Origin: Burkholderiales bacterium
GTDB lineage: Bacteria; Pseudomonadota; Gammaproteobacteria; Burkholderiales; SG8-41
NCBI GenBank assembly: GCA_019751125.1
Contig: JAIENU010000074.1
Span: 10,464 to 74,463, forward strand
DNA: 64,000 bases
Direction: 5' to 3'
The position numbers and the translations under genes were made by a program. The notes below the pieces were generated by a model. That model had not been told where the DNA came from. It ran no database searches and saw only the letters and a list, made by a program, of their open reading frames with translations. This document shows, one piece after another, positions 26,184 to 43,506 of this stretch. How positions within the stretch are numbered: the stretch's first letter is position 1; the number at the start of each line of letters is the position of its first letter.

Positions 26184-26424
26184 GCTCGGTTCCTCCGGCA
26201 GCGGCCAATGGTTTATTCCACGGCTCAGATCATGGCGCGGATTATACCGGTGACCGGCTGTTGCCGAGCGCCATCCACAATATGCAAGGGTCGGGTTTCG
26301 GCGACGGGGCCGCAGGTGCTGCGGTGCTGTTCAACATATGACCCGAAGCGGCGGTTCCAGCAGGGTGGCGGGGTATAATCCGCGCACTTTTTTCAACACA
26401 GATCGATAGCCGAAAGCCCTGCCC

Positions 26425-27822: not shown

Positions 27823-28957
27823 AGACAAACCGATGTCCCTCGACGAGCTGATTGAGGACGCGCAGCGCGTGCTTAGGGTGTGCAATGCCTGCCGCTACTG
27901 CGAAGGCTTCTGCTCGATGTTCCCGGCGATGGCGCGCCGTCTTGAGTTCACCGAGAACGATGTCCATTACCTCGGCAACCTCTGCCACAACTGCGGTTCC
28001 TGCCTCTACGCCTGCCAGTTCGCGCCGCCGCACGAATTCATGGTCAACGTGCCGCGGCTGATGGCCAAGGTGCGCGGCGAAACCTACCGCCAGTACGCCT
28101 GGCCGGGTTTCCTCGGCAAGCTCTACAACAACAACGGCGTCGCGGTGAGCCTGATCTCGGCATTCAGCATTGCGCTGCTGTTCTGGGTGGCCGGCGCTCT
28201 GAATAATCCGGAGCGCTTCTTCGCAGCGCACAGCGATGCGCAGGGTTCCTTCTATGCGCTGATGCCGCACAACCTGATGGCCGGCATGTTCGGTGCGGTG
28301 TTTGCGTTCGCGATGGTTGCGCTGTTCATGGGCTTCATCCGCTTCTGGCCGTATATGGGTGAGGAACTCTCGGACTTCTTCAAAAAACCGCTGGCTGAAG
28401 GCCTGCATGACGCCTTTACCCTGAAGAACCTGGGCGGCGGTGTCGAGAACGAAGGCTGCACCTATCCCAACGAACAGAAGTCGCTGGTGCGGCGGGTGTT
28501 CCATCACTTCACCTTCTACGGCTTCATGTTGTGCCTGGCATCAACCAGCGTAGCCACGGTCTATCACTACGTGCTCAATTATCCGGCGCCATATCCGTAC
28601 ACCAGCCTGCCGGTGATCCTCGGCACCCTCGGCGGCATCGGCCTGCTGATCGGGCCCGCGGGCCTGTTGTACCTGAAGTCGCAGCGCGATCCGGAACTGG
28701 CCGCCACTGATCAGACCGGCATGGATGCCGGCCTGCTGGTGCTGCTGTTCATGATCAGCCTGACCGGCCTCGGCCTGATGATCTGGCGTGAAACCGGCGC
28801 GATGGGCACCTGGCTCGCGATCCACCTCGGCTTTGTGCTCGCGCTGTTCCTGACCATGCCCTATGGCAAGTTCGTGCACGGCATGTACCGCCTGATGGCG
28901 CTGGTGCGCTGGCATGTCGAGCGGCGGCGCCCGGTGCCGGGGGTTGCGCCCGAGTAA
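27809..28957 (+). CDS. tcuB: tricarballylate utilization membrane Fe-S protein
   Basis: Two Cys clusters (CNACRYCEGFC and CHNCGSCLYAC) followed by about six TM helices. The start overlaps the tcuA stop by 14 nt. Confidence 0.8.
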   Translation: MYAAEDKPMSLDELIEDAQRVLRVCNACRYCEGFCSMFPAMARRLEFTENDVHYLGNLCHNCGSCLYACQFAPPHEFMVNVPRLMAKVRGETYRQYAWPGFLGKLYNNNGVAVSLISAFSIALLFWVAGALNNPERFFAAHSDAQGSFYALMPHNLMAGMFGAVFAFAMVALFMGFIRFWPYMGEELSDFFKKPLAEGLHDAFTLKNLGGGVENEGCTYPNEQKSLVRRVFHHFTFYGFMLCLASTSVATVYHYVLNYPAPYPYTSLPVILGTLGGIGLLIGPAGLLYLKSQRDPELAATDQTGMDAGLLVLLFMISLTGLGLMIWRETGAMGTWLAIHLGFVLALFLTMPYGKFVHGMYRLMALVRWHVERRRPVPGVAPE

Positions 28958-28980: not shown

Positions 28981-29016
28981 GCAAAAGGGCCGCTGCTGCG
29001 GCCCTTTTGCTTTTTT
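28981..29016 (+). terminator. rho-independent terminator
   Basis: 13-bp stem GCAAAAGGGCCGC / GCGGCCCTTTTGC, a 4-nt loop and a T6 tract after tcuB. Confidence 0.9.
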
Positions 29017-29061
29017 GATGGCGGCATTCAACCGCCTCATCTCCCGGCTCATTATGCAGAC

Positions 29062-29083
29062 TTGTATCGCGATGTGGATACAA
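29062..29083. promoter_or_regulatory. inverted repeat TTGTATCGCGATGTGGATACAA (candidate GntR-type operator)
   Basis: Perfect 7-bp arms TTGTATC/GATACAA, about 95 nt upstream of the first gene of the GGT-bracketed operon. Confidence 0.4.
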
Positions 29084-29176
29084 CATGGCGGCGCCCGGGT
29101 GATGCTGCTATCGTTCGTAACAGACTGATGCCAACGGCGCTGCCACTGCGCCAGTCCTTTTTCCGGGGTTCATATC

Positions 29177-30895
29177 ATGGCCGGCAAACGCATGACCATC
29201 ATGGGCACCCGCCACGTCGTGGCGGCGGGGCACTATCTTGCGGCACATGCCGCATTCGAAATTCTTGAAGCCGGAGGCAATGCCATTGATGCCGGCGTTG
29301 CTGCAGGCCTGGCAATCGGCGTGCTGCAGACCGACAAGGTCAACATCGGCGGTGTCGCGCCGCAGATCATCTACACCGCGAAAGACCGCAAGGTGCATTC
29401 GATCGACGGCCTCGGCGTGTGGCCGGCGGCGGTGACGCCGGATTATTTTCGCGACAACCACGGCGGCAAGATTCCGCAGGGGGTGCTGCGCTGTATCGTA
29501 CCGGCGGCGCCTGATGCCTGGATCACCGCGCTGTCGCGCTTCGGCACCATGAGCTTCGGTGAAGTGGCCTCCGCCGCGATCCGCTTCGCGCGGGAAGGCT
29601 TCCCGATGCACCCGATGATGTCGAAATTCATCACCGAGCGCGTCGACATGTACAAGCGCTGGCCGTCGAGCAAAAAAGTGTTTCTGCCCGGCGGCAAGCC
29701 GCCGCAGGTGGGGCAGGTGTTCGTGCAGTGCGAACTCGCCGCTACCCTGCAATACATGGCCGACCAGGAACGCCGTGCCGCGCGCAAGGGCCGCAAGGCC
29801 GGGCTGCAGGCGGCACGCGACGCCTTCTACAAGGGTGACATTGCCAGAACCGTTGCCGACTGGATCACCCGCCAGGGCGGGCTGATGCGTTATGACGACT
29901 TTGCCAACTTCAAGGTCAATTTCGAGCCCACGGTGAAGTCGCGCTTCGGCGACCTCGAACTGCACGCCTGCGGTCCCTGGTCGCAGGGACCCGCGTTGCC
30001 GCTGGCGCTGAACATCCTGAAGGGCTTCGACCTGAAGGCGATGGGGCACAACACGCCGCAGTACATCCACACCCTGGTCGAGGCGCTGAAGCTCGCGTAT
30101 GCCGACCGCCACCAGTATTTCGGCGATCCGAAATTCGTCAAGGTGCCGATGGCGGGGCTGATGTCGCAGCGTTATGCCGACTGGCGGCGTTCGCTGATCC
30201 GCGGTGATCGTGCCTGTCCCGGCATGCCGCCGGCAGGTGATCCGAAAACGCTGCAGGAAGTGGCCAGCATCTGCATGCCGGCGCCCACGCTGCACGAGGG
30301 CCCCAAACCCGGCGACACCTCCTATCTCTGCGTGATGGACCGCCATGGCAATGCCTTCTCCGCGACACCTTCGGACGGCTCCGACAAGACACCGATCATC
30401 CCCGGCGTCGGCATCCTGTGCTCGGGACGCGGCACGCAGTCCTGGTCCGACCCCTCGCACCCGTCTTCGGTGGCGCCAGGCAAACGGCCGCGGCTGACCC
30501 CCAATCCGGCACTGGCACTGAAGGGCGGCAAGGCCTATATGCCTTTCGGCACGCCGGGTGGTGATGTGCAGATCCAGGCAATGATCCAGGTGTTCCTCAA
30601 CATCCAGGTCTTCGGCATGGCGGTGCAGGACGCGGTGGAGGCGCCGCGTTTCGCCAGCTACAGCTTTCCCGGTTCCTTCGAGCCGCATGAGTATTTCCCG
30701 GCACGGCTCAATCTCGAGCCGGCGATGGGGGAGGTCACCGGCAAGGCGCTGGCGGCGATGGGGCATGACGTGTACTGGTGGGATGACATGACATCCACCG
30801 CGGGTTCGGTCTGCACCATCGTCAAGGATTTCCGCAACGGCGTGCTGCATGGCGGCGCCGACCCGCGGCGTCCGGCGTATGTGCTGGGCTGGTAA
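29177..30895 (+). CDS. gamma-glutamyltransferase-family Ntn hydrolase, paralog 1
   Basis: GGNAIDAGVAAG N-terminal block, autoprocessing/nucleophile context PGDTSYLCVMDRHGNAFSATPS and a FGTPGG block. Confidence 0.85.
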   Translation: MAGKRMTIMGTRHVVAAGHYLAAHAAFEILEAGGNAIDAGVAAGLAIGVLQTDKVNIGGVAPQIIYTAKDRKVHSIDGLGVWPAAVTPDYFRDNHGGKIPQGVLRCIVPAAPDAWITALSRFGTMSFGEVASAAIRFAREGFPMHPMMSKFITERVDMYKRWPSSKKVFLPGGKPPQVGQVFVQCELAATLQYMADQERRAARKGRKAGLQAARDAFYKGDIARTVADWITRQGGLMRYDDFANFKVNFEPTVKSRFGDLELHACGPWSQGPALPLALNILKGFDLKAMGHNTPQYIHTLVEALKLAYADRHQYFGDPKFVKVPMAGLMSQRYADWRRSLIRGDRACPGMPPAGDPKTLQEVASICMPAPTLHEGPKPGDTSYLCVMDRHGNAFSATPSDGSDKTPIIPGVGILCSGRGTQSWSDPSHPSSVAPGKRPRLTPNPALALKGGKAYMPFGTPGGDVQIQAMIQVFLNIQVFGMAVQDAVEAPRFASYSFPGSFEPHEYFPARLNLEPAMGEVTGKALAAMGHDVYWWDDMTSTAGSVCTIVKDFRNGVLHGGADPRRPAYVLGW

Positions 30896-30940
30896 CAGGT
30901 TCAATCAGCGATTCAACCGTTCAACAGGGAGGTGCCGCAG

Positions 30941-31927
30941 ATGATCACCACGACCGGGCAGTCCATCCGATTTGCTGCAAGTCTGATGTTTGTATTGGCT
31001 GCGGTGGCTGCAACGCCGGCCGCTGCGCAGTCCTTCCCCAACAAACCGATCAAGCTTTACGTCGGCTTCCCGCCGGGCGGCGGTTCCGATGCGCTGGCGA
31101 GGCTGGTCGGCGGGGCCATGCCGGGCCGCCTCAACCAGCAGATCGTCGTCGACAACAAGCCTGGTGCAAATACCATTCTTGCCACCGAATACGTCAAAAG
31201 CCAGCCGGCTGACGGTTACACACTGCTGTTTGTTTCGGCCTCGTTTGCGATCAACCCCAGCCTGTATAAGCTGAGTTATGACATTGAAAAGGACCTGACA
31301 CCGGTGGGGCTGGTGGCAATGGTGCCGCTGTTGATGGTGACCTACCCCGGTTCGGGTGTGGGCAGCGTCAATGAGCTGCTGGCGATGGCGAAAAAACAGC
31401 CGGGCAAACTGACCTTTGCCTCCTTCGGCACCGGCAGTGCCGCGCACCTGGCCGGTGAAATGCTCAACAGCATGACCGGCAGCGATCTGCTGCATGTGCC
31501 GTACAAGGGCAGTGCACCAGCGCTGGCCGATGTGATGGGTGGGCGCATCACGATGATGATGCCGGGCATCGGCTCGGCGATAGCCCTTGCGCGCGAAGGC
31601 AAGCTGCGCGCACTGGCGGTATCGACCGCAAAACGTGCCTCCGGTGCTCCTGAAATTCCCACCGTGGCCGAATCCGGTGTGCCCGGTTTTGATGTAGGCA
31701 CCTGGGAGTCGATCCAGGCGCCGGGCGGCACGCCGCCGGATGTGGTGTCCCGGCTCAACACCGCGCTGCGCGAGGTGACCGCCAATGCCGAGATCCGCGC
31801 CAAGATGGTGGCGATGGGTTTTGAGCCCGAGGGTGCGCGCTCCCCGGCGGAAACCGTGGCCTTCATCCGCAATGAACGCAACAAGTTCGCCAAGCTGGTC
31901 AAGGAACGAAATATCAAGGCGGAGTAA
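30941..31927 (+). CDS. Bug/TctC-family periplasmic solute receptor
   Basis: Signal peptide, then FPNKPIKLYVGFPPGGGSD and the FASFGTGSAAH and VPYKGS blocks. RBS AGGGAGG lies 9 nt before ATG 30941. Confidence 0.9.
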   Translation: MITTTGQSIRFAASLMFVLAAVAATPAAAQSFPNKPIKLYVGFPPGGGSDALARLVGGAMPGRLNQQIVVDNKPGANTILATEYVKSQPADGYTLLFVSASFAINPSLYKLSYDIEKDLTPVGLVAMVPLLMVTYPGSGVGSVNELLAMAKKQPGKLTFASFGTGSAAHLAGEMLNSMTGSDLLHVPYKGSAPALADVMGGRITMMMPGIGSAIALAREGKLRALAVSTAKRASGAPEIPTVAESGVPGFDVGTWESIQAPGGTPPDVVSRLNTALREVTANAEIRAKMVAMGFEPEGARSPAETVAFIRNERNKFAKLVKERNIKAE

Positions 31928-31934
31928 ATCGATT

Positions 31935-33194
31935 TTGACTCCGGCCGCATTGAACAAGCCCTCGGTCACCGTGGTCGGCGCCGGCATAGTCGGCGTCTGC
32001 TCGACCCTGTGGCTGCAGCGCGCCGGCTTTGAGGTGACGCTGGTTGACAGCGGCGGTGTCGGCGAAGGTGCATCCTTCGGCAACGCCGGCAACATCAGTC
32101 CCGGTGCGGTGGTGCCCTATCTGATTCCCGGCATCTGGAAGGAGGCACCGGGCTGGCTGCTCGATCCCGAGGGTCCTCTTGCGGTACGCCCCGGTTATTT
32201 CCTGAAAGCATTGCCCTGGCTGATGGCTGCGGTGCGTTCGGCCGGCGAAGAGGCCGCGCTTCGCACTTCACGTGCAATGCATGCGATACACAGCAGCACG
32301 CTGGATGATTACGCCGAGCTGACCCGCGGCACCGCGGCAGCCGACCTGATCGAACTGTCAGGCCAGCTGTATGTGTCGGAGAAGCCGGGTTCTGCACAGG
32401 GCTCTGCGCTGGCGCAGCGCATGCGCACCGAATTCGGCGTCGAGGCCGTGGCACTGGACTGGATGGAAGTGCGCGAACTGGAGCCCTGTCTGGCGCCGAT
32501 ATTCAAAAGCGGCCTGCTGCTGCCGAAAAACGGCCGCACCAAGAATCCGCACCACCTGGTCACCGCGCTGGCTGACATCGCGCAACGCAACGGTGCACGG
32601 GTGCTGCGCGGCAAGGTCGATGGTTTTGTCACCGAAGGTGCTGCGGTGAAGGCGTTGATCATTGACGGCCAGACCCAGGCCGCCGAGCGGGTGGTGATTG
32701 CCGCGGGTGCTGCCTCGCGCGACCTGGCTGCGCAGCTCGGCAGCAAGTTGCCGCTGGAGGCCGAGCGTGGCTACCACATCACCATCAGCAATCCCGGCGT
32801 GATGCCGCGGATGCCGGTGACCAATACCGATGCCAAATTCGCCTGTGCGCCGATGAATGTCGGGCTGAGGCTGGCGGGCACCGCGGAGTTTGGCGGGCTC
32901 AAGGCTGAACCGAACTGGCAGCGCACCGAAGTGCTCAAGCGCCAGGCGCAGCGCATGTTTCCGGGTGTGAACCTCGAATCGGTTTCAACCTGGAGCGGTA
33001 ACCGGCCGAGCCTGCCCGATGGCCTGCCGGTGCTCGGCGCCGCGCCGAAATTCAACAATGCCTGGTTTGCCTTCGGCAATTCGCACTTCGGCATGTCGGC
33101 GGGGCCGGTGATGGGCAAACTTGCAGCCCAACTGGTGGCCGGGCAGCGCAGCAGTGTCGATATCACGCCTTTCCGCCCGGAACGGTTTAAGTAA
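31935..33194 (+). CDS. FAD-dependent oxidoreductase (DAO/D-amino-acid dehydrogenase-like)
   Basis: VTVVGAGIVGVCSTLWLQRAGFEVTLVD Rossmann motif, GNAGNISPG and a C-terminal DAO block. No ATG is available, so the start is provisionally TTG 31935 (low certainty). Confidence 0.75.
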   Translation: MTPAALNKPSVTVVGAGIVGVCSTLWLQRAGFEVTLVDSGGVGEGASFGNAGNISPGAVVPYLIPGIWKEAPGWLLDPEGPLAVRPGYFLKALPWLMAAVRSAGEEAALRTSRAMHAIHSSTLDDYAELTRGTAAADLIELSGQLYVSEKPGSAQGSALAQRMRTEFGVEAVALDWMEVRELEPCLAPIFKSGLLLPKNGRTKNPHHLVTALADIAQRNGARVLRGKVDGFVTEGAAVKALIIDGQTQAAERVVIAAGAASRDLAAQLGSKLPLEAERGYHITISNPGVMPRMPVTNTDAKFACAPMNVGLRLAGTAEFGGLKAEPNWQRTEVLKRQAQRMFPGVNLESVSTWSGNRPSLPDGLPVLGAAPKFNNAWFAFGNSHFGMSAGPVMGKLAAQLVAGQRSSVDITPFRPERFK

Positions 33195-33208
33195 TTCAGG
33201 ATCAGGAC

Positions 33209-34606
33209 ATGCTCGCGCAACAACTCGCTGAACGTATCGTCGCACTGCGTGATGCCGAACATCCGGCCGCGGCATATGAGGCTTCGCGTGTCGCGGTTGA
33301 AGACACGCTGGGCTGCATGCTTGCCGGTGCGGCAGAGCCGGCGACGACCATGGTTGCCGCGACGGTTGCCGGCAGCGACGGTCCCTGCACCTTGCTCGGT
33401 ACGGGGCGCCGCACCACTCCCCTGGATGCCGCGCTGGTCAATGGCACCGCGGCACATGCCCTGGATTACGACAATGGCAGCAACAGCATGGGTGGCCATG
33501 CCTCGGCAACCATGGTGCCGGCGCTGCTCGCCGCGGCCGAGGCCTTTGGTGGCAGTGGCCGCGACCTGATGGTGGCGCATACCGTCGGCTTCGAGGTCGG
33601 CACGCGCATCGGACTCGGCGTCAACTTCCATCACTACGAAAAGGGCTGGCATCCGACTTCGACCCTGGGCACCTTCGCGGTGGTGGGGGCCTGCGCCTCG
33701 TTGCTGAAGCTGGATGCGGCACAGACTGCAACCGCACTGGCCATCGGTGCCTCGCTGGCCTCGGGCATCAAGGCCAATTTCGGCACCATGACCAAACCGA
33801 TGCATGTCGGCCACTGCGCGCGCAACGGGCTGTTCGCGGTGCTGCTTGCGCGCGAGGGCTTTACCGCGAGTGCGGCAGCCTTTGAACACAAGCAGGGTTT
33901 TTTCGAGGTTTACAACGGCGCCGGCCATTACGACGCGGCGCGCATTCTTGAGGACTGGGCCTCGCCGCTGCAGATCCTGCAGCCGGGGGCCGGATACAAA
34001 CAGTATCCCTGCTGCGCGGCGACCCATTCAGCGCTGGATGCCACGCTGGCCATCGTGCGGGGTGAGGGCGGGCGCATCGACCCGCGGCGCATAGCAAAAA
34101 TCGAAACCTGGACACCGGCGCGGCGCCTCGTGCATACCGACCGCCCTGATCCGAAAAGTAATCTTGATGCCAAGTTCAGCGTGCAGTACTGCGTCAGCCG
34201 CGCGGTGATCGATGGCCGCATCGGCATCGAGCATTTCGAAGGCGAAACCTGGCGCGATCCGGCAGTGCGCGAGCTGATGACGCGGGTGCGCTCAACGGTG
34301 CATCTGCCGGGACAGTTTCCGGCGGACAACCACTTCGGCGCTGAAGTGAAGATCACGCTCGATGACGGCCGCGTGTTGTCCGATCGCGTCGACATCCAGC
34401 TCGGCCGCACCGCGAACAATCCGATTCCGCCGGCACAGTTGCGCGGAAAATTTCTCGACTGCGCCGGCCGTGCCTTGCCGGCGGTCCGCGTCACGCAACT
34501 CGCGCAGCAGCTCGACACGCTGCAGACCTTACCCGATGCGGCCCGGCTGATGGCTGCTGCGGCTGAAGATACAGAAAATTATCAATTAAAACAAGGGGTT
34601 AAGTGA
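33209..34606 (+). CDS. MmgE/PrpD-family protein (2-methylcitrate-dehydratase-like fold)
   Basis: DTLGCMLAGAAEP, GWHPTSTLGTFA and KPMHVGHCARNG blocks of the family. Confidence 0.85.
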   Translation: MLAQQLAERIVALRDAEHPAAAYEASRVAVEDTLGCMLAGAAEPATTMVAATVAGSDGPCTLLGTGRRTTPLDAALVNGTAAHALDYDNGSNSMGGHASATMVPALLAAAEAFGGSGRDLMVAHTVGFEVGTRIGLGVNFHHYEKGWHPTSTLGTFAVVGACASLLKLDAAQTATALAIGASLASGIKANFGTMTKPMHVGHCARNGLFAVLLAREGFTASAAAFEHKQGFFEVYNGAGHYDAARILEDWASPLQILQPGAGYKQYPCCAATHSALDATLAIVRGEGGRIDPRRIAKIETWTPARRLVHTDRPDPKSNLDAKFSVQYCVSRAVIDGRIGIEHFEGETWRDPAVRELMTRVRSTVHLPGQFPADNHFGAEVKITLDDGRVLSDRVDIQLGRTANNPIPPAQLRGKFLDCAGRALPAVRVTQLAQQLDTLQTLPDAARLMAAAAEDTENYQLKQGVK

Positions 34607-35607
34607 TGACTTCCGCTGCGCTGTGTTGTTGCTCCCGCTTTTCTCTGGCCGGTTTGCTGATGGCATTGCCGCTGACCGTGCCGGCGGCACAGTCCCCGAA
34701 AGGTGGTGATGTTGCCTATCCCACGCGTCCGGTGCGGATGATCGTGGCGCAGGCGGCGGGTGGGCCCACCGATGTCGCAGCGCGGGTGTTTGCAACACGC
34801 CTGTCAGACATCATGGGCCAGCAGGTGGTGGTGGATAACCGTCACGGTGCCGGTGGCAGCGTGGCTGGCGAGATTGCAGCGCGGGCGCCGGCTGACGGCC
34901 ACACCGTGCTGGTTGCCGCCAATGGCACGGTGGCTGTGGCGCCGCATTTGATCAAGCTGCCGTTCAGCATACGCACCGATTTCGTGATGACGGCGCTGAT
35001 CGGCAACAGCCCGCTGGGTGTGATGGTGGCGCCCAACCTGCCGGCGAATTCGGTGAAAGAGTTGCTGGCGCTGGCCAAATCACGGCCGGGCAAACTCAAT
35101 TTCGGTTCCTCGGGGCAGGGCGCCACTTCGCATCTGGCCGGCGAACAGTTGAAAATGCTTGCCGGCATCAACATCGTGCATGTGCCGTACAAGGGCGCGG
35201 GCCCGGCGCTGATCGGACTCGTCGGCGGCGAGATCGACATCCTGATTTCCGGGTTGTCGAGCGCGCTGCCTTTCGTCAAACAGAAGCAGCTCAAGCTGCT
35301 GGCGGTGAGCAGCGCGAAGCGCACGGCCCTGATGCCCGAGCTGCCCTCGATGGCGGAGACGGTGCCCGGTTATGACGTCGGTTCCTGGTATGGCGTGTTG
35401 ACCACGTCGGGGACGCCGCGGCCGGTGATCGAGAAGCTGCACGCGATGTCCAACCGCGCGCTGGGGGCGCCGGATATCGTGGCCAAGCTGATTTCTCTGG
35501 GCATCGACCCCGAGCTGATGACACTGCCGCAGCTCTCGGACAAGCTCAACTCCGAATACGAGCGCTGGGGCAAGGTGGTGAAGGCGGCCGGCATCAAGGC
35601 CAACTGA
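34606..35607 (+). CDS. Bug/TctC-family periplasmic solute receptor
   Basis: Signal peptide, then YPTRPVRMIVAQAAGGPTD and the FGSSGQGATSH and VPYKGAG blocks. The start overlaps the PrpD-like stop (GTGATG). Confidence 0.9.
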   Translation: MTSAALCCCSRFSLAGLLMALPLTVPAAQSPKGGDVAYPTRPVRMIVAQAAGGPTDVAARVFATRLSDIMGQQVVVDNRHGAGGSVAGEIAARAPADGHTVLVAANGTVAVAPHLIKLPFSIRTDFVMTALIGNSPLGVMVAPNLPANSVKELLALAKSRPGKLNFGSSGQGATSHLAGEQLKMLAGINIVHVPYKGAGPALIGLVGGEIDILISGLSSALPFVKQKQLKLLAVSSAKRTALMPELPSMAETVPGYDVGSWYGVLTTSGTPRPVIEKLHAMSNRALGAPDIVAKLISLGIDPELMTLPQLSDKLNSEYERWGKVVKAAGIKAN

Positions 35608-35617
35608 GGCACTCACG

Positions 35618-36739
35618 ATGAGCAGCAGGGATGCCGATGTTCTGGTACTCGGCGGTGGCCTGGTCGGCACCGCCGTGGCCTATGGGCTGGCGCGGCTGGG
35701 CCAGCGCGTACTGGTACTCGACGAGGGTGACATCGCGCATCGTGCCTCGCGCGGCAATTTCGGACTGGTGTGGGTGCAGAGCAAGGGTTTCGGCGTGCCC
35801 GAATACCAGCGCTGGACACGGCGTTCGGCCGACGATTGGGCTGATTTTTCCGCGGAGCTTCTGAGCGAAACCGGCGTCGCCAGCGGCCACGAGCGGCCGG
35901 GCGGGGTGACGATCTGCCTGAATGAAGAAGAGCTTGAACGCCGGCGCAAACGCATGGAGCAGCTGCACCTGGAGGCGGGCGAGACGCAGTTCCAATACGA
36001 AATGCTCAACCCCGCCGAGCTGAAAAAACTGATCCCCGCGATCGGTCCCGAAGTCGTCGGCGCCTCGTTTACGCCGTACGACGGCCATGCCAATCCGCTG
36101 TACACGCTGCGTGCGCTGCATGCGGCGCTGCTCAAGCATGGCGGCCGTTACCAGCCCAATGCGCGGGTGACCGCGGTGGATGCCAGGCCCGGCGATTTCA
36201 GGGTCAGTGCCGGCGGCCATAGTTATGCCGCGCCGAAGGTGGTACTCGCCGCGGGCCTCGGCAACAAGGAGCTGGGGGCCATGGTCGGGCTCAATGTGCC
36301 GGTGCGTCCGGTGCGCGGGCAGATCATCGTCACCGAGCGCATGCAGCCGGTGCTGCCGATGCCGACACTGATGATCCGCCAGACCGTGGAAGGCACGATC
36401 ATGATCGGTGAATCGCGCGAGGAAAGCGGTTTCGACGACACGACTTCGCCGGAAATCGTGCACACGCTGGCCCAGCGCGCGGTGAAAACCTTTCCCTTCC
36501 TGCGCCATGCACGCATCGTGCGCAGCTGGGGCGCGCTACGCGTGATGTCGACCGACGGCCTGCCGGTGTATGAGCAGTCGGTGCAGTTTCCGGGTGCCTT
36601 TGTCTGCACCTGCCACAGCGGCGTCACCCTGGCCGCGGCGCATGCCCGCCATTACGCGCGTTATGTCGTCGAAGGCGCCTTGCCGGCGGAGCTGGCGCGT
36701 TTTTCCACGGGACGGTTCAATGTTCAAGCTGCTGCCTGA
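35618..36739 (+). CDS. FAD-dependent oxidoreductase, beta-type subunit of an opine/D-hydroxyproline/HCN-synthase-like heteromeric flavoenzyme
   Basis: DVLVLGGGLVGTAVAYGLARLG Rossmann motif and DAO-family blocks. It is followed by a small 2Fe-2S subunit and an HcnB/OoxA-like subunit. Confidence 0.75.
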   Translation: MSSRDADVLVLGGGLVGTAVAYGLARLGQRVLVLDEGDIAHRASRGNFGLVWVQSKGFGVPEYQRWTRRSADDWADFSAELLSETGVASGHERPGGVTICLNEEELERRRKRMEQLHLEAGETQFQYEMLNPAELKKLIPAIGPEVVGASFTPYDGHANPLYTLRALHAALLKHGGRYQPNARVTAVDARPGDFRVSAGGHSYAAPKVVLAAGLGNKELGAMVGLNVPVRPVRGQIIVTERMQPVLPMPTLMIRQTVEGTIMIGESREESGFDDTTSPEIVHTLAQRAVKTFPFLRHARIVRSWGALRVMSTDGLPVYEQSVQFPGAFVCTCHSGVTLAAAHARHYARYVVEGALPAELARFSTGRFNVQAAA

Positions 36740-37022
36740 AAGTAATCCACTGGCGCCGGCCGTCACGGTGGTCGTCAACGGGCGCAGCGTCGCGGTGCCG
36801 CAGGGCTGCAGCGCGGCGGCGGCGATGCTGATGCACGGCGGCGGCAGCACGCGCACCACGCCGGTCAGCGGCGAAGCGCGCGCGCCGTACTGCATGATGG
36901 GTTTGTGTTACGAATGCCTGATGGAAATCGACGGCGAACCCAACCAGCAGGGCTGTCTGGTGATCGTGCGCGAAGGCATGCACATCAATCCCCAGCTCGG
37001 CAAACCGGGAGTGAAGCCGTGA
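36720..37022 (+). CDS. (2Fe-2S)-binding small subunit (HcnA/opine-oxidase gamma-like)
   Basis: 100-aa protein with the Cys cluster PYCMMGLCYECLMEIDG. It overlaps the upstream gene by 20 nt. Confidence 0.75.
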   Translation: MFKLLPESNPLAPAVTVVVNGRSVAVPQGCSAAAAMLMHGGGSTRTTPVSGEARAPYCMMGLCYECLMEIDGEPNQQGCLVIVREGMHINPQLGKPGVKP

Positions 37023-38443
37023 TGCAGACCGATCTCGCCATCATCGGCGCCGGGCCTGCAGGGCTGTCGGCTGCAATCAGTGCGACGGCGGCAGGGCTCA
37101 AGGTGGTGGTGCTTGACGAGCAGCCGGTGCCCGGCGGGCAGATCTACCGCAATATCGAAACACTGGCGGCAACACGGCCCGCGCATCTGCAATGGCTGGG
37201 GCCCGACTACGCGGCGGGCCTGCCGCTGCTGCGCCATTTCCATGAATGTGCTGCAACGTATCTGCCGATGGCGCAGGTGTGGCAGGTCGGTCACGACGGG
37301 CGCGTGTATTACCGCCGTAATGTCGCAAATGAAGGCGCGGTGGGCATAGTCCATGCACGCAAGGTGTTGATTGCCACCGGTGCAATGGAGCGTCCGCTGC
37401 CGGTGCCGGGCTGGACGCTGCCCGGCGTGATGAGCTGCGGTGCTGCGCAGACCCTGCTCAAGGCCAGTGGCCTCGCGCCTGATGGCCGTTTTGTTCTTGC
37501 GGGTAGCGGCCCCTTGCTGCTGTTGCTCGCGGCGCAACTGATCCGCGCGGGCAGGCCGCCGGCGGCGATACTCGAGACTTCCTATGATTTCTGGGGCGCC
37601 CTGCCGCATCTGCCCGGCATGCTCGGTCTGCCCGGCTATCTGCTGAAGGGCCTTGGGCTGCTGCGCGAGATTCGTGCCGCTGCGCTGCCGTTTTACCGCG
37701 GCGTGACGCGGCTGGAGATCAAGGGCAGGGAACGCGCGCGGGAAATCGAGTTCGAGGTGGACGGCCGCAGCTTCATTGAGGCGGTAGATCTGGTCTTTCT
37801 GCACCAGGGTGTAGTGCCCAACGGCAACCTGGCGCTGTCCACCGACATCCGCCATCACTGGGACGATCTGCAGAAGTGTTTCCGGCCCGAACTCGATGCC
37901 GCGGGCCGCAGTTCCAGCGACATGGTGCGTGTGGCTGGTGATGCCGGCGGCATTGTTGGTGCGGTTGGCGCTGCGGCGATGGGCGAAGTGGCGGGGCTGG
38001 CAGCCGCTGCCGACCTTGGCAGTATTGATGCGGCCGAATTTGAAAGCCGCGCAGCTGCTGCGAGGCAATTGCTGACACGGCACCGGGCGGCGCGGCCATT
38101 TCTGGATCGCTTGTATCGCCCGCGGCAGCAGTGGGTGGCGCCCACCGATCCCGACACGGTGATCTGCCGCTGCGAGGAAATTCGCGCCGGTGATGTGCGC
38201 CACCTCGTTGCCGCACAAAATTGCCCCGGCCCGAACCAGATGAAATCCTTCATGCGCTGCGGCATGGGTCCCTGCCAGGGGCGGCTGTGCGGCTTGACCG
38301 CGGTCGAGCTGATCGCTGAAACCCGTGGCCAGACCCCGGCTGAGATCGGTTATTACCGGATCCGCGCCCCGATCAAACCTGTCACCCTCGGTGACATGGC
38401 GGCCCTTGATGTGCCGAGCCGCCATGACGCCGTCAATCCCTGA
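37022..38443 (+). CDS. NAD(P)/FAD-dependent oxidoreductase, alpha-type subunit (HcnB/OoxA-like)
   Basis: DLAIIGAGPAGLSAAISA fold and a C-terminal BFD-like Cys motif ICRCEEIRAGDV...MRCGMGPCQGRLC. The start overlaps the upstream stop (GTGATG). Confidence 0.8.
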   Translation: MQTDLAIIGAGPAGLSAAISATAAGLKVVVLDEQPVPGGQIYRNIETLAATRPAHLQWLGPDYAAGLPLLRHFHECAATYLPMAQVWQVGHDGRVYYRRNVANEGAVGIVHARKVLIATGAMERPLPVPGWTLPGVMSCGAAQTLLKASGLAPDGRFVLAGSGPLLLLLAAQLIRAGRPPAAILETSYDFWGALPHLPGMLGLPGYLLKGLGLLREIRAAALPFYRGVTRLEIKGRERAREIEFEVDGRSFIEAVDLVFLHQGVVPNGNLALSTDIRHHWDDLQKCFRPELDAAGRSSSDMVRVAGDAGGIVGAVGAAAMGEVAGLAAAADLGSIDAAEFESRAAAARQLLTRHRAARPFLDRLYRPRQQWVAPTDPDTVICRCEEIRAGDVRHLVAAQNCPGPNQMKSFMRCGMGPCQGRLCGLTAVELIAETRGQTPAEIGYYRIRAPIKPVTLGDMAALDVPSRHDAVNP

Positions 38444-38474
38444 ACTGAAACCAAACCTCAAAGTGAGCTGACTC

Positions 38475-40187
38475 ATGGCTGTCTACCGTCCCACCATCAC
38501 CGGCGAACGCCACATGATTTCCGCCGGTCATTATTCGGCCACCCATGCCGGTTTCAAGATCCTCGAGGCCGGCGGCAATGCCATCGACGCCGGTGTGGCT
38601 GCAGGCATTGCGCTGGGCATCCTGCAGACCGACCGCGTCAATTTCGCCGGTGTCGCGCCGATCATGATCTGGCTTGCCGACAGGCAGCAGGTGGTCAACA
38701 TCGACGGCCTGGGCACCTGGCCGAAGGCGGCGTCGCTGGAGCATTTCCACAAACACCACGAAGGCAAGATGCCGCCGGGCCTGCTGCGCGCGGTGATGCC
38801 GGCGGCACCGGCATCCTGGCTCGCTGCACTCGAGCGCTACGGCACGATGAGTTTCGGCGAAGTTGCGGCGGAAGCGACGCGGCTTGCGCGGGACGGTTTC
38901 GCGATGCACGAATTCATGGCCGACTACATCAAGGACAACGAGGCGGGTTACCGCCACTGGCCCTCGAGCACCGCGGTGTTCCTGCCCAAGGGCAGGCCGC
39001 CGGAAGTCGGCGAGCGTTTTATCCAGTCGGAACTTGCGGCCTCGCTGCAGTACATGATTGACGAGGAGGCGGCGCACAAGGGCAAGGGCAGGGCGGCCGG
39101 CCTGCGCGCGGCGCGTGATGCCTTCTACAAGGGCGATATCGCGCAGAAGATCGCCAGATACCATCGCGAAAACGAAGGCTGGGTCACTGCCGAAGACCTC
39201 GCCGCTTACGAAGTCAGCTTTGAAGATCCGGTACACACGCGTTTTCATGGGGTTGATCTCTATGCCTGCGGCCCGTGGTCGCAGGGGCCGGTGCTGCCGC
39301 AGACACTGAACCTGCTGTCGGGTTTTGACCTGAAGGCGATGGGCCATAACTCGCCGCAGTACGTGCACACCATCGTCGAATCCCTGAAGCTGTCCTTCGC
39401 CGACCGCCACCGTTATTACGGCGATCCGAAATTCGTCAAGGTGCCGATCGATATCCTGCTTTCGCCGGCCTATGCCGACGAGCGGCGCAAGCTGATCAAT
39501 GCCGATGCCGCCGCACCGGGCATGCCGGAGGCGGGTGATGTGATCGGCTTCGCCAAGCTGCACAATCTGCCGCCGCCGACGCCCGGCGAGCCGAATCCGC
39601 CGCCGGACACTTCTTATGTCTGTGTTGTTGACCGCCACGGCAATGCCTTCTCGGCCACGCCCAGCGACGGCTCCAGCGCGATGCCGGTCATTCCCGGCAC
39701 GGGGCTGTGCCCGTCCTCGCGCGGCTCGCAGTCGTGGACCGATCCGAAAATGCCGGCAGTGATGGCGCCGGGCAAACGGCCGCGGCTGACGCCGAATCCG
39801 GCGATGGCACTGAAGGACGGCAAGCTGCTGATGCCTTTTGGTTCGCCCGGCAACGACATCCAGCCGCAGGCGATGACCCAGGTTTTTCTCAACATCGTGG
39901 TGTTCGGCATGGAGCCGCAGGCCGCGGTCGAGGCGCCGCGCTTCGCCACCTACAGCTTCCCCAGTTCCTCGGAGCCGCACGCCTATCACCCGGGGCGGAT
40001 CAATCTCGAATCGCGTTTTGAAACAAAGACGGTTGAACAGCTCGCGAAGCTGGGCCACACCGTCGCGGCGTGGCGCGAAATCGAATGGCGCGCCGGCGCG
40101 GTGTGTGCGGTGCGTGTGAATCGCGACAACGGCCTGCTCGAAGGTGCTGCCGATCCGCGGCGGCCCTGTTATGCGATGGGGGTTTGA
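38475..40187 (+). CDS. gamma-glutamyltransferase-family Ntn hydrolase, paralog 2
   Basis: Collinear paralog of 29177..30895, with GGNAIDAGVAAG, PPDTSYVCVVDRHGNAFSATPS and FGSPGN. Confidence 0.85.
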   Translation: MAVYRPTITGERHMISAGHYSATHAGFKILEAGGNAIDAGVAAGIALGILQTDRVNFAGVAPIMIWLADRQQVVNIDGLGTWPKAASLEHFHKHHEGKMPPGLLRAVMPAAPASWLAALERYGTMSFGEVAAEATRLARDGFAMHEFMADYIKDNEAGYRHWPSSTAVFLPKGRPPEVGERFIQSELAASLQYMIDEEAAHKGKGRAAGLRAARDAFYKGDIAQKIARYHRENEGWVTAEDLAAYEVSFEDPVHTRFHGVDLYACGPWSQGPVLPQTLNLLSGFDLKAMGHNSPQYVHTIVESLKLSFADRHRYYGDPKFVKVPIDILLSPAYADERRKLINADAAAPGMPEAGDVIGFAKLHNLPPPTPGEPNPPPDTSYVCVVDRHGNAFSATPSDGSSAMPVIPGTGLCPSSRGSQSWTDPKMPAVMAPGKRPRLTPNPAMALKDGKLLMPFGSPGNDIQPQAMTQVFLNIVVFGMEPQAAVEAPRFATYSFPSSSEPHAYHPGRINLESRFETKTVEQLAKLGHTVAAWREIEWRAGAVCAVRVNRDNGLLEGAADPRRPCYAMGV

Positions 40188-40207
40188 GAAGGGGAATTGT
40201 TGTAAAT

Positions 40208-40223
40208 AATTGTTTTTATTGAA
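40208..40223 (+). repeat. AT-rich intergenic motif copy d (AATTGTTTTTATTGAA)
   Basis: 20 nt after the GGT-2 stop and 46 nt before the MFS start. The 19-nt TAATTGTTTTTATTGAATA is identical to copy e. Confidence 0.7.
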
Positions 40224-40268
40224 TAATTTATAGAGCGGCGACAAGCCGTCCGGGGGGCAAAAGCAATC

Positions 40269-41513
40269 ATGAAATTCCTGCGCATCCAGGGCATCCATCG
40301 CGCCTGGATCATTCTTGCTGCAGCCTGTGTGCTGGGTGTGGTGAGCCGCGCCGACTCGGCGTCGTTTGCCGTGCTCGTCGATCCGCTGGTTGAAAAATTC
40401 GGCTGGAAGCGCGGCGACATCGGCCTCGCCTATTCGCTGGCCTTTTTGTGCAGCATGCCGGCGATGCTGGTCTTCGGCTGGCTGGGGGATCGATACAGCG
40501 CGCGCACGCTGATGCTCGGCTCGTCGCTGATGATTTCAGTGGGCACCGTCATGCTCGGCATGATCCAGGAGCTGTGGCATCTGCATGTCATCTACGGCGT
40601 GTTTGTCGGCGCGCTGGGCAACGCGGCTTTTGTCGTGCTGCTGCCGGTGATCATCACCCGCTGGTTCAACCACAAGATGGGGCTGGCACTGGGCATCTAC
40701 TGGGCGGGGCTGGGCATGGGTCCGGTGGTGTTTGCGCTGCTGTTCCGCTGGATGATCGAGAATCGCGGCTGGGAGCCGGCATTCATGGTGTTCGGCATCG
40801 CCTTCGGTGTGGTGCTGCTGTTTTTCTCCTGGTTCATCCGATCCAGTCCAGCCGAAATGGGGTTGACGGCCTATGGCGCTGATGAGGCGGACAAGGAAAA
40901 GCAGGCCTCGGGCCCGACGGTCAGCTTGAAGTCGGTGTTTTCCAGCCGGCCGGTGTGGCTGCTGATGGGCTGCCATCATCTCGGTTGTGCGGGGCATGCG
41001 GTGATCCTTGCGCATGGCGTGTCGATGGCCACCCACCACGGCATCCCCGGCCTGCAGGCGGCGGGTGTGCTCAGCACCATCGCCGGGGTATCGATTTTCA
41101 GCCGCTTCAGTTTCTCACTGCTCACCGAGCGTTTCGGTGGTCGCACCATCCTGTCCGGCGCGATCTTCGGGCAGAGCCTGTCGGTGCTGATGCTGCTGTT
41201 CGCAAGCGAGGCCTGGCACTTCTACATCTTCGCCGTCATCTTCGGCATCTGCTACGGCGGCGAGATGGTCGGATTCCCGATCATCAACCGCCAGATGTTC
41301 GGCCCGAAGGCACCCTTGAGTTCGATTTTTTCATTCCAGATGATCGGAGGCACCACCGGCATGGCGCTCGGCGGCTGGCTGGGCGGGGCGTTGTTTGATC
41401 ATTCTGGCAACTACACGGCGGCCATTCTGGTGGCGTCGGGGATTGGCTTTTTGGCGGTGCCGTTGGCGCTTTGGTTGCCGAGGCATCGGCACAAAGCTGT
41501 GGCGCAGGTGTGA
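40269..41513 (+). CDS. MFS transporter
   Basis: About 12 hydrophobic segments, with GWLGDRYSARTLM in loop 2-3. Confidence 0.8.
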   Translation: MKFLRIQGIHRAWIILAAACVLGVVSRADSASFAVLVDPLVEKFGWKRGDIGLAYSLAFLCSMPAMLVFGWLGDRYSARTLMLGSSLMISVGTVMLGMIQELWHLHVIYGVFVGALGNAAFVVLLPVIITRWFNHKMGLALGIYWAGLGMGPVVFALLFRWMIENRGWEPAFMVFGIAFGVVLLFFSWFIRSSPAEMGLTAYGADEADKEKQASGPTVSLKSVFSSRPVWLLMGCHHLGCAGHAVILAHGVSMATHHGIPGLQAAGVLSTIAGVSIFSRFSFSLLTERFGGRTILSGAIFGQSLSVLMLLFASEAWHFYIFAVIFGICYGGEMVGFPIINRQMFGPKAPLSSIFSFQMIGGTTGMALGGWLGGALFDHSGNYTAAILVASGIGFLAVPLALWLPRHRHKAVAQV

Positions 41514-41550: not shown

Positions 41551-42837
41551 TCAGAGTTTCATGCTTTCTCGATATTGCTCTGCTGATGGCTCGTGAATCA
41601 AATCAAAAACCTTGTCGTAATTTTCTCGGATAACTTTTTCAATTTCTTTGATATCGGCCTTGAAAAACTCTTTTCTCGTGTTGACCTTGTTCACCCTTGA
41701 TTGAGTGAAATGGGCGTGAATTTTTGCTTCTAATTCTGGGGCGTTGTCTGAAAAAATCATGGCATGCAAGTCAAATTCAAAAGGTACGGATGCATCTCCA
41801 AGTTCATCAACCCGTTCTAGTGGCTCGAGCCTTCTGGTCATGCCAATTTTGTATATGTTGTGACCAAATGCCCCTATGTTCGAGACGATATAGATATAAC
41901 CCGCTTTTGCATTTTTCTCGCGGTAATCAATTTGTTTTTCTTCGCTGTCAAGAGCATTAATTTGGGAGCTAACCTCGTTTAATTTTTCTTCAATCTCTTT
42001 TTTCTCTTGCTCATCTTTGGATGCAGCCAGTTTTTGTTGAAGATTTTTAATGGCAGCAGAAAAATGCTTTCTTTCCTTTTCTATTTTTTCGCGAGCTTGC
42101 CTTATTTCTCGCTCTATTTTTTGCTGCTCTCTTAGCTCCTCCCTTGCTTTTCTTTGCTCATCTTTTTCTTCTTGTTTTTTGATCTGATATTCAAAGGCTA
42201 GTTGTAGCTCTGAAATTTTTAGATTTTTATATTGCGTGGTTACTTTGGCACTTAATATTCGTCCTAATTTTTCCAATGCTTTAAATGATTTTTCAATGCG
42301 CTCTTCAAAGTTTTCGATATTGTTAAATTTAACGTTATCGACGCAATAGTCACATTCATTGTTGAACGACCTGAGAAGAAGCCTTTTCATGTCGTTGACC
42401 ATCTTTTTTCCTTCTGCCTTGCTGCCATTAACGGTCCAATTTTCATCGGCGATAACGGCTTTACCTTCCTTGATAAGTAGTTTTTGTTCTTCTCTGATTT
42501 GGTCGAGTTTTTCTTTGTGTGATGCGCTGTTGCTGAATGGAAATTTCGGTTTATAAAGCGCGAAAGACTCGAGAAGTATTTCATCATCGAGGGAAATAAT
42601 TTGTAATTTTCTTTCGGCTATTTCTTGTTCTAGGGAATTTTTTTGCAATGCCAGTGCCTTCAAGTCCCTCTCGATTTCACTGCATTTTTTTAGGTAGATT
42701 TCTAGTTTGGCATGTACTTTTTCTACTTCATCTGCACCAATTTCCCGCATCAGATCCCTTAGTCGATTGAGATCATCAGTCAGTTTTTCGTTTTCTTTTC
42801 GAATCTCAGATACTCTAAAAATGTCGAAAATGCTCAT
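41551..42837 (-). CDS. DUF4041 + T5orf172 (MUG113/GIY-YIG-like) domain protein, candidate phage-defence nuclease
   Basis: Strongly AT-rich gene. Coiled-coil N-terminus, a DUF4041-like core (NWTVNGSKAEGKKMVNDMKRLLLRSFNNECDYCVDNVKFNNI) and a C-terminal GYIYIVSN...YKIGMTRRLEPLERVDELGD...EFFKADI T5orf172 signature. Confidence 0.8.
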   Translation of the reverse strand: MSIFDIFRVSEIRKENEKLTDDLNRLRDLMREIGADEVEKVHAKLEIYLKKCSEIERDLKALALQKNSLEQEIAERKLQIISLDDEILLESFALYKPKFPFSNSASHKEKLDQIREEQKLLIKEGKAVIADENWTVNGSKAEGKKMVNDMKRLLLRSFNNECDYCVDNVKFNNIENFEERIEKSFKALEKLGRILSAKVTTQYKNLKISELQLAFEYQIKKQEEKDEQRKAREELREQQKIEREIRQAREKIEKERKHFSAAIKNLQQKLAASKDEQEKKEIEEKLNEVSSQINALDSEEKQIDYREKNAKAGYIYIVSNIGAFGHNIYKIGMTRRLEPLERVDELGDASVPFEFDLHAMIFSDNAPELEAKIHAHFTQSRVNKVNTRKEFFKADIKEIEKVIRENYDKVFDLIHEPSAEQYRESMKL

Positions 42838-42889
42838 TTTTATATCTCTTGATCGGGTAAAGTTGACTTATTGAGAGGAGATTTTCGCT

Positions 42890-43216
42890 TTAAGCGGCTG
42901 CTGCGTGTAGCTTTACACCAAGTGCCCTAGCAACTCTTAGAACCGTCGCAAAACTCGGATTCCCATCCTCACTGAGTGCGCGGTAAAGACTTTCGCGTGA
43001 CAGGCCCGTCGCCTTGGCAACCTGTGTCATTCCTTTGGCGCGAGCTATGTCACCCAGCGCCCGCGCAATACCTGCTGCATCCTCCGGAAAATCACTAAGC
43101 CAGGCATCAAGGTAGGCAGCCATTTCCTCTGGCGTCCGGAGTTGAGCCGCGACGTCGTAGGGCAGGGTTTTGGTTTTCGCTGGTTTTTTGGCTGAAGTTC
43201 GTGTCATGTCATTCAC
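42890..43216 (-). CDS. HTH (XRE-type) addiction-module antidote protein (HigA-like antitoxin)
   Basis: 108-aa protein with AAYLDAWL..., MTQVAKATGLSRESLYRALSEDGNPSFATVLRVARALG. Overlaps the toxin stop by 4 nt. Confidence 0.85.
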   Translation of the reverse strand: MNDMTRTSAKKPAKTKTLPYDVAAQLRTPEEMAAYLDAWLSDFPEDAAGIARALGDIARAKGMTQVAKATGLSRESLYRALSEDGNPSFATVLRVARALGVKLHAAAA

Positions 43217-43506
43217 TCCTGAAAATCACGTGCCAGTTCGGTGGCGCGTTTGATGTCTCGTTCCTGCGTGGTTTTATCGCCGCCTGCCAGCAGCAGGATC
43301 AAGCGGGTTCCGCGCTGCATGTAATACACGCGATAGCCGGGACCGAAGTCGATTTTTAATTCGGATACACCGCCGGTCAGGTTGCGATGTTGGCCGGGGT
43401 TGCCGTGCACCAGCCGATCCACACGCACCTGTATCCGTGCGCGGCTCGCGGTGTCCCGCATGCCGTTGATCCACGCTCGATAGACTTCGGTCTCTTCGAC
43501 GCGCAT
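43213..43506 (-). CDS. RelE/ParE-superfamily addiction-module killer protein (HigB-like toxin)
   Basis: 97-aa protein with VSELKIDFGPGYRVYYMQRGTRLILLLAGGDKTTQERDI, typical of the killer-protein family. Toxin-first gene order. Confidence 0.85.
   Translation of the reverse strand: MRVEETEVYRAWINGMRDTASRARIQVRVDRLVHGNPGQHRNLTGGVSELKIDFGPGYRVYYMQRGTRLILLLAGGDKTTQERDIKRATELARDFQE

Follow-up and report, generated by a model that had tools for sequence, protein, structure and literature searches.

The flavin-containing opine dehydrogenases are heterotrimeric enzymes. The subunits of the characterised members Nox, Oox and Odh share 36-48% identity and are encoded by overlapping beta-gamma-alpha genes, and the family takes in D-hydroxyproline and L-proline dehydrogenases that share the same subunit genes (Watanabe et al., PMC4575208). 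In opine systems the enzyme lies within a catabolic cluster that also contains a solute receptor and hydrolases, with arginase, ornithine cyclodeaminase and hydantoinase-type enzymes as partners. Succinamopine catabolism on pTiEU6, for example, combines an Odh-type enzyme with an amidase (asparaginase) and lactam-opening enzymes (PMC6733357). Here, we describe a computational analysis of a 64,000-nucleotide stretch of DNA from a Burkholderiales bacterium (assembly GCA_019751125.1, contig JAIENU010000074.1, positions 10,464 to 74,463), referred to below as the window, in which an enzyme of this kind is encoded within a predicted nine-gene operon. The operon begins and ends with homologues of gamma-glutamyltransferase (GGT), designated GGT1 and GGT2, and between them encodes two Bug-type solute receptors (BugA and BugB), a DadA-like FAD dehydrogenase, a protein of the MmgE/PrpD family and the flavoenzyme's three subunits, beta, gamma and alpha.

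Like the Odh, Nox, Oox and SacEFGH enzymes (P. putida, Bradyrhizobium, Ti plasmids and pTiEU6), the flavoenzyme of the window has overlapping beta-gamma-alpha genes and subunits of nearly equal size to theirs, and like them it is embedded among solute receptor and hydrolase-family genes. Its partners differ from those of the opine clusters, being GGT homologues, a PrpD-like protein and a DadA-like protein, and, unlike the opine oxidases of the Ti plasmids, the cluster is chromosomal and found in uncultured Burkholderiales from water and soil. In literature searches no published account of the gene combination was found, in agreement with the preliminary description of this DNA, which had recognised no described pathway in it. 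The cluster is a variant of the opine-dehydrogenase-centred catabolic clusters, so far seen only in uncultured bacteria.

The three subunits were compared directly, over their full length, with NoxB, NoxC and NoxA of pTiC58. The beta subunit is 38%, the gamma subunit 37% and the alpha subunit 41% identical to its Nox counterpart, within the range seen among the characterised opine enzymes, and their lengths (373/100/474 amino acids) are close to those of Nox (372/97/472). All motifs described for the family in PMC4575208, for FAD, FMN and 2Fe-2S alike, are present. The beta subunit carries GGGLVG at residue 12 and the R-x-W motif as RSW at residue 302, the alpha subunit carries GxGxxG at residue 10, and the 2Fe-2S motif of the gamma subunit, C-X4-C-X2-C-X12-C, reads CMMGLCYECLMEIDGEPNQQGC and fits the published pattern C-X4-C-X2-C-X11-12-C. 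In the cysteine cluster of the alpha subunit (C-X-C...C-X4-C) all five NoxA cysteines (C383, C385, C402, C419 and C424) align, with a spacing that departs, in the window protein and NoxA alike, from the X15-20 printed in PMC4575208. The genes themselves are tandem and overlapping, in the same order as noxB-C-A of pTiC58. Together, the identities, the motifs and the shared order support the placement of the predicted heterotrimer with the Nox/Oox/Odh enzymes, a kinship that had been proposed earlier with a profile comparison as its check. It is set apart from HcnABC by its gene order and from LhpBEF by its companion genes. The genes of hydrogen cyanide synthase run hcnA-B-C, encoding a small 2Fe-2S protein, an alpha-like protein and a beta-like protein, an order that differs from the beta-gamma-alpha order of the window. 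A gamma-alpha-beta order was observed at five metagenome loci (L135, L149, L158, L163 and L167; L numbers are our handles for loci outside the window), where the beta subunit is only 26-33% identical to that of the window; these loci probably represent the HcnABC-type branch.

The string from GGT1 to GGT2 (29177-40187) is kept in four lineages of uncultured Burkholderiales/Betaproteobacteria at 73-95% amino acid identity: the window, a single drinking-water/activated-carbon population (L001-L003, 78-95%), L085 (75-91%) and L175 (73-88%). The flanks of L175 are different, with an Iso_dh (isocitrate/isopropylmalate dehydrogenase-family) gene upstream and a transposase fragment and a glutathione S-transferase (GST) gene downstream. 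L175 retains all nine genes without the tcuAB genes that precede the string in the window and without the MFS transporter gene that follows it, and both tcuAB and the MFS gene are also absent from every partial version of the string. The co-inherited unit is therefore the nine genes, and tcuAB and the MFS gene are lineage-specific neighbours. The preliminary description had reported a ten-gene operon on one strand, tightly spaced or overlapping, bracketed by GGT paralogues and encoding no regulator. Open reading frames (ORFs) and Pfam/NCBIfam matches place all ten genes on the + strand as described, with none of them a regulator, but the co-inherited unit excludes the tenth, the MFS gene. Within the unit, neighbouring genes overlap by up to 20 bases or are separated by up to 45. 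Its recurrence across four lineages and differing flanks, the outcome of the gene-neighbourhood comparison suggested at that time, marks it as a genuine unit.

The nine genes are two modules fused together, each of which joins a Bug receptor to a flavin dehydrogenase and a homologue of GGT. Module A consists of GGT1, BugA, the DadA-like dehydrogenase and the MmgE/PrpD protein, and module B of BugB, the beta/gamma/alpha subunits and GGT2. Parts of this arrangement occur separately. L177 has an isolated Bug-beta-gamma-alpha-GGT2, and L088 a decayed version of it; L004 has PrpD-beta-gamma-alpha-GGT2 with BugA-DAO alongside on the other strand; and L093, a 4-kb contig, ends after PrpD-beta-gamma-alpha. 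More distant combinations include a distant beta-gamma-alpha set with a Bug gene and, divergent from them, a GGT2 orthologue (75%) (L089); LysR, beta-gamma-alpha, GGT (49%), porin and MFS genes (L107); PrpD (65%), DAO (48%) and Bug genes adjoining beta-gamma-alpha (L087); and, in Bradyrhizobium, GntR, TcuA-like, PrpD (50%) and GGT1-like (60%) genes, the last two adjoining one another (L079). In other genomes GGT2 is the gene most consistently linked with beta-gamma-alpha. That the association arose or persisted in several arrangements is a signature of presumptive functional coupling. Some copies show signs of decay: GGT2 is split in two ORFs in L003 (L003:10852-12565), and in L088 the genes for Bug and beta are in fragments (L088:6595-8298).

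The two GGT homologues, which are 58% identical to one another, share with E. coli Ggt the same fold, the Thr nucleophile, the first oxyanion glycine and about 31% identity. In an alignment with the MG1655 protein the nucleophile (E. coli T391) is invariant and the processing site reads D/T (D-T-S-Y), and the second glycine of the oxyanion pair is Asn in GGT2. E. coli Ggt has a signal peptide and is periplasmic, whereas GGT1 and GGT2 have no signal peptide, lacking any N-terminal extension relative to it, and are cytoplasmic by sequence. Five E. coli residues, R114, N411, Q430, D433 and S462, which in the E. coli structures bind the gamma-glutamyl moiety by its alpha-amino and alpha-carboxyl groups, are replaced in both paralogues and in their homologues (by Leu, Gly, Arg, Gln or Ser, and Leu, respectively), at positions anchored by the adjoining invariant I111-D112 and K458-R459-P460. 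Additionally, the two proteins score 290.8 and 298.3 bits against TIGR00066, under the NCBIfam cut-off of 357.85. The nearest solved relative by sequence and by structure is LmbA2991 (PDB 6J3A/6J3I), which is 33% identical and superimposes on the AlphaFold model of GGT2 (pTM 0.85) with a TM-score of 0.88; a literature search on PDB 6J3A returned no match. The LmbA/Ant6-type proteins of actinomycetes resemble GGT1 and GGT2 in being cytoplasmic, in their Asp/Thr site and in not keeping the gamma-glutamyl recognition residues. LmbA-type homologues are described in published reports as self-processing at Asp/Thr, as hydrolysing C-C bonds and as lacking gamma-glutamyl transfer or hydrolysis activity (PMC6085292, PMC5519988). 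LmbA serves antibiotic biosynthesis through cleavage of a pyrroline C-C bond, whereas the homologues described here occupy a catabolic setting beside Bug receptors.

Because of the replaced residues, the scores below the cut-off and the kinship with LmbA2991, the gamma-glutamyl label is not transferable to GGT1 and GGT2, and they are probably not gamma-glutamyl enzymes. These same features, with the missing signal peptide, weaken the original proposal that the two proteins cleave gamma-glutamyl bonds, and they make classical gamma-glutamyl salvage improbable. In such a scheme GGT1 and GGT2, as true gamma-glutamyl hydrolases, would split imported gamma-glutamyl peptides or amides into glutamate (possibly the D-isomer) and an amine or amino acid, and the flavoenzymes would oxidise the products. 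Strong Pfam G_glu_transpept matches and the conserved catalytic Thr would fit it, as would the relatives of GGT2 on plasmids, cytoplasmic proteins encoded inside peptide-type ATP-binding cassette (ABC) transporter operons; the loss of all five recognition residues and a nearest solved relative reported to lack gamma-glutamyl activity argue the other way. A plasmid search with GGT2 found only relatives of at most 52% identity, in such operons, and no related cluster; these contexts are consistent with the hydrolysis of imported amide compounds more generally.

The MmgE/PrpD protein matches the two domains of its family with E-values of 5.5e-58 and 4.9e-32, and scores only 21-35 bits against the PrpD equivalog models, for which the NCBIfam cut-offs are 458-950. 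Its best PDB match is iminodisuccinate (IDS) epimerase (E 1e-65, 34% identity). Residues H97 and Y143 align with H99 and Y145, the proposed bases of IDS epimerase, and are invariant or nearly so in 20 homologues. According to a 2025 study (PMC12290011), the substrates of the characterised MmgE/PrpD enzymes are C4-dicarboxylates with a substituent at C2/C3, the enzymes share an enolate mechanism, and two of them are epimerases or isomerases. The His/Tyr pair is shared by IDS epimerase of A. tumefaciens BY6 (PDB 2HP0/2HP3), methylsuccinate isomerase and the window protein. An IDS-type epimerase beside an opine-type dehydrogenase is chemically coherent, since iminodisuccinate is a secondary-amine tetracarboxylate; the identity to IDS epimerase is only 34%, however, and the known iminodisuccinate route uses a C-N lyase rather than a flavin dehydrogenase. 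The window protein is epimerase-like at most, as its sequence does not distinguish among epimerase, dehydratase and decarboxylase. Elsewhere, a 509-residue PrpD homologue (P0031, 65%) has a DAO Pfam match as well, which points to a fusion of DAO and PrpD or to a gene call that extends into an upstream DAO gene.

BugA and BugB match the TctC family of Pfam with E-values of 4e-63 and 1e-64 and have hydrophobic N-termini. They are 38% identical to one another. Uptake through two different periplasmic receptors, as had been suggested, is plausible. No match to the TctA or TctB families was found among the window ORFs scanned, which were part of the total. The DadA-like protein scores 212.8 bits against NF001933, for which the cut-off is 383, and is DadA-like only. 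We considered whether it could be a second beta subunit sharing alpha and gamma, as OdhB2 of Bradyrhizobium does; this is unlikely, as the R-x-W motif typical of beta is missing from it and its identity to beta is only 26%.

From the observed gene content, gene order, conservation, family membership and motifs we infer a substrate class, an order of steps and co-transcription of the genes, and we hold with about even confidence that the nine-gene operon imports and breaks down one or more carboxylate-rich, N-substituted amino acids. BugA and BugB would bind, in the periplasm, one or two related compounds of this kind, opine-like or aminopolycarboxylate-like and probably bearing an amide or other acyl bond, which would be imported by membrane proteins of the tripartite tricarboxylate transporter (TTT) type encoded elsewhere. 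In the cytoplasm the GGT homologues would hydrolyse the acyl bond, not a classical gamma-glutamyl one, by deacylation or deamidation of, for example, the side-chain amide of an N2-substituted Gln or Asn, or a lactam. The PrpD-like enzyme may then invert a stereocentre on a C4-dicarboxylate (aspartate-like) moiety, the beta/gamma/alpha enzyme would oxidise the secondary amine to yield an amino acid and a 2-oxo acid, and the DadA-like enzyme may oxidise a D-configured or N-substituted product. The pTiEU6 succinamopine pathway introduced above offers a precedent for uniting an Odh-type enzyme with amidase and lactam-opening activities. Of the gamma-glutamyl- or opine-like pathway put forward in the preliminary description, the opine-like part is thus supported, by the heterotrimer, and the gamma-glutamyl part is doubtful, given the GGT homologues.

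Several observations weigh against import and breakdown of such compounds by the operon. Characterised opine clusters use an ABC permease, and the window operon encodes two receptors of the TctC family and no part of an ABC system. All carriers of the nine-gene string are uncultured bacteria without physiological context. The pocket loops of the GGT2 model (residues 412-438) have pLDDT values below 50, so that the pocket argument is one drawn from the alignment. Homologues of the PrpD protein at 58% identity or less sit, among the matches listed, in many unrelated contexts, and because of this the family assignment does not fix the reaction. Finally, a GGT gene near beta-gamma-alpha is rare in the wider family. 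A metagenome scan with the alpha alignment gave at least 80 loci (39-68% identity among the matches listed); in the 80 listed, beta-gamma-alpha order is the rule and an extra beta paralogue after alpha is common, and a GGT gene lies nearby in only one. In a genome-collection scan with the PrpD alignment, all paralogues among the matches listed were at most 58% identical and most lacked GGT, DAO and beta-gamma-alpha partners, and no named cultured carrier of the cluster was among them. This rarity, together with the partner-free PrpD paralogues, indicates that the association is specific to the nine-gene clade.

A bolder version, which we regard as speculative and rather unlikely, is that the operon specifies an oxidative pathway, as yet undescribed, for aminopolycarboxylates of natural or man-made origin or for opines of the amide type, in which GGT homologues with remodelled pockets would perform a new, non-gamma-glutamyl hydrolysis, an IDS-epimerase-like enzyme would feed the correct stereoisomer to the opine-type dehydrogenase and the TTT/Bug receptors would act as specific sensors. 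The same low confidence covers the candidate substrates of such a route, N-substituted Asp, Asn or Gln compounds such as iminodisuccinate, ethylenediaminedisuccinate (EDDS)-like or aspergillomarasmine-like chelators, succinamopine and heliopine.

No more probable than gamma-glutamyl salvage is a cyclic imino-acid pathway, in which the heterotrimer would resemble D-hydroxyproline dehydrogenase and a GGT homologue would act in LmbA-like fashion on the pyrroline-carboxylate product. The enzyme family does include D-hydroxyproline and L-proline dehydrogenases (PMC4575208), a pyrroline intermediate is the substrate of LmbA2991, the nearest structure (PMC5519988), and the variant locus L087 adds genes of the dihydrodipicolinate synthase (DHDPS) family and of a D-serine-dehydratase-like protein. 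The beta-gamma-alpha set of L087, however, is only 44-58% identical to that of the window and is therefore not orthologous, and the hydroxyproline epimerase, DHDPS-type deaminase and ketoglutarate-semialdehyde dehydrogenase of the LhpBEF pathway are absent from the operon and its neighbours. Furthermore, beta and alpha are as near to NoxB and NoxA as the characterised opine enzymes are to one another.

Still less likely is the breakdown of a tricarboxylic-acid amide, for instance a carboxylate siderophore or another conjugate of the citrate or tricarballylate type, in functional coupling with the adjoining tcuAB genes. True tcuA and tcuB genes with their own Bug receptor do lie directly upstream, also in L001 and L085; in L071/L074 and L079, TcuA-like flavoproteins adjoin PrpD homologues and are accompanied by a gene of GGT-like or DAO-family type; and the MmgE/PrpD family includes tricarboxylate dehydratases and decarboxylases. 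The TcuA-like proteins of L071 and L079 are, however, only 32-33% identical to TcuA of the window, and a strong terminator separates tcuB from GGT1. This terminator and the persistence of the genes without tcuAB in L175 rule out tcuAB as part of the unit, and the partial versions likewise do without tcuAB. The last alternative, that the genes share no pathway and that Bug-associated paralogues, which abound in Burkholderiales genomes, have come to lie in a row by chance, is very unlikely and already disfavoured: the window does hold at least seven Bug and two MmgE/PrpD genes, and PrpD paralogues beside Bug genes are very common, but order and orientation are kept in four lineages across different flanks, stop and start codons overlap, and pairs of these enzyme families turn up again in unrelated genomes.

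Table 1. Genes and DNA elements of the nine-gene unit and its immediate flanks, in window coordinates.
Feature	Position	Strand	Basis
Intrinsic terminator after tcuB	28981-29010	+	Hairpin and T-run
Inverted repeat TTGTATC-N8-GATACAA	29062-29083	.	Repeat within conserved block ~29055-29116
GGT1, GGT homologue; N-terminal nucleophile (Ntn) hydrolase, D/T processing site, non-canonical pocket	29177-30895	+	ORF, Pfam, NCBIfam, alignment
BugA, TTT (TctC-family) solute receptor, putative signal peptide	30941-31927	+	ORF, Pfam
DadA-like FAD dehydrogenase (DAO), 419 aa, TTG start after GGAG	31935-33194	+	ORF, Pfam, NCBIfam
MmgE/PrpD-family protein, nearest to iminodisuccinate epimerase	33209-34606	+	Pfam, structure-database match
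BugB, second TTT receptor; start overlaps PrpD stop codon	34603/34606-35607	+	ORF, Pfam
Beta subunit, catalytic, DAO fold, GxGxxG and RSW motifs	35618-36739	+	Pfam, motifs
Gamma subunit, 2Fe-2S, Fer2_4; 20-base overlap with beta	36720-37022	+	Pfam, motifs
Alpha subunit, Pyr_redox_2, Fer2_BFD and SO_alpha_A3; overlaps gamma	37019/37022-38443	+	Pfam, motifs
GGT2, second GGT homologue	38475-40187	+	Pfam, NCBIfam, alignment
AT-rich spacer, 81 bases, promoter-like hexamers	40188-40268	+	Sequence inspection
MFS transporter (monocarboxylate/oxalate-formate-like), lineage-specific neighbour	40269-41513	+	Pfam, NCBIfam

The BugA ORF opens at GTG 30932, and its likely start is the listed ATG, which is preceded by GGGAGG. 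The proteins of the window match exactly a series of consecutive entries of an uncultured Burkholderiales genome bin, among them MBY0265973 (GGT1), MBY0265976 (the PrpD protein) and MBY0265981 (GGT2), whose database names are at family level only.

The regulatory elements named in the preliminary description, the strong terminator after tcuB, the inverted repeat in the promoter region of GGT1 and the AT-rich motif before the MFS gene, were all found. The terminator has a 13-pair stem (9 G-C) followed by a T-run, its hairpin core is conserved in L001 and L085, and it marks the upstream boundary of the operon. The inverted repeat occurs once in the window, where 0.07 occurrences would be expected by chance even with two mismatches allowed. 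The block of about 60 bases that holds it is nearly invariant in the window, L001 and L085, and the surrounding intergenic DNA diverges; L175, with its other upstream gene, has only a degenerate repeat (TTGTGT...ATACGA) and a similar stretch downstream, and conservation of the repeat is thus confined to part of the lineages. The spacer before the MFS gene contains the promoter-like hexamers TTGTAA-16-AATAAT and is common to the window and L001 only, L085 having an unrelated spacer of 275 bases. On the strength of these conservation patterns, the inverted repeat is probably an operator or promoter element, and the MFS gene is probably a transcription unit of its own with a separate promoter. 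An Rfam scan of the operon and its leader gave no family match, which makes a known riboswitch there unlikely. The nearest regulator, a GntR/FCD protein (18752-19531), is encoded 10 kb upstream within another cluster; it was considered as a partner of the repeat, and no link between the two could be shown.

Other features of the window and of the related loci were observed in passing. Upstream of the operon, positions 23760-28957 hold a complete-looking tricarballylate unit made up of an MFS transporter gene, a divergent Bug receptor gene, tcuA and tcuB. Both proteins score well above the equivalog cut-offs and are true TcuA and TcuB equivalogs, and the Bug receptor appears to stand in for the uptake role of Salmonella TcuC. 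The cluster that contains the GntR/FCD regulator (16395-21660) is a candidate amino-acid/organic-acid cluster, in which an oxidoreductase of the DAO family, a dioxygenase of the TauD family, a Bug receptor and a protein of the mandelate-racemase/enolase family are also encoded. Other Bug genes lie at 19532, 25197, 45876, 48755 and 49883, so that the 64 kb hold at least seven, and a second MmgE/PrpD gene lies at 52014-53447 (-). Directly after the MFS gene is an island of low GC content (41551-43506, -; 38% against about 64% for the window), which looks like a recent insertion because L001 and L085 have other genes there. One of its genes, for a DUF4041/T5orf172 protein, fits the model for PD-Lambda-1 anti-phage defence (E 6e-145), and two others form a toxin-antitoxin pair resembling HigB/HigA (families Gp49 and HI1420-downstream). 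At L079:7506-13275, L071:7422-13212 and 13214-16105, and L074, a TcuA-like flavoprotein that is extended by about 70 residues at its N terminus, and only 32-33% identical to TcuA of the window, is encoded directly upstream of a PrpD homologue. The pair is followed by a GGT1-like gene in Bradyrhizobium and by a pipecolate-oxidase-like DAO gene and alpha-gamma-beta in genome bins of Thalassospiraceae and Rhodospirillales; these loci may represent a separate, uncharacterised pathway.

The operon is one of many uncharacterised catabolic clusters, and nothing in it contradicts current understanding; for enzyme discovery it is a good lead into three families that are large and little characterised. 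If the proposed mechanism is true, it would give a function to a large and almost uncharacterised clade of cytoplasmic betaproteobacterial GGT homologues, proteins of about 570 residues that are at least 68% identical across thousands of metagenome proteins, as well as to part of the very large and mostly orphan MmgE/PrpD and Bug families. It could also lead to a route by which secondary-amine polycarboxylates, among them biodegradable chelators and metallophores, are broken down. Flavin-containing opine dehydrogenases would then reach beyond the opines of plant tumours and into the Burkholderiales of water and soil.

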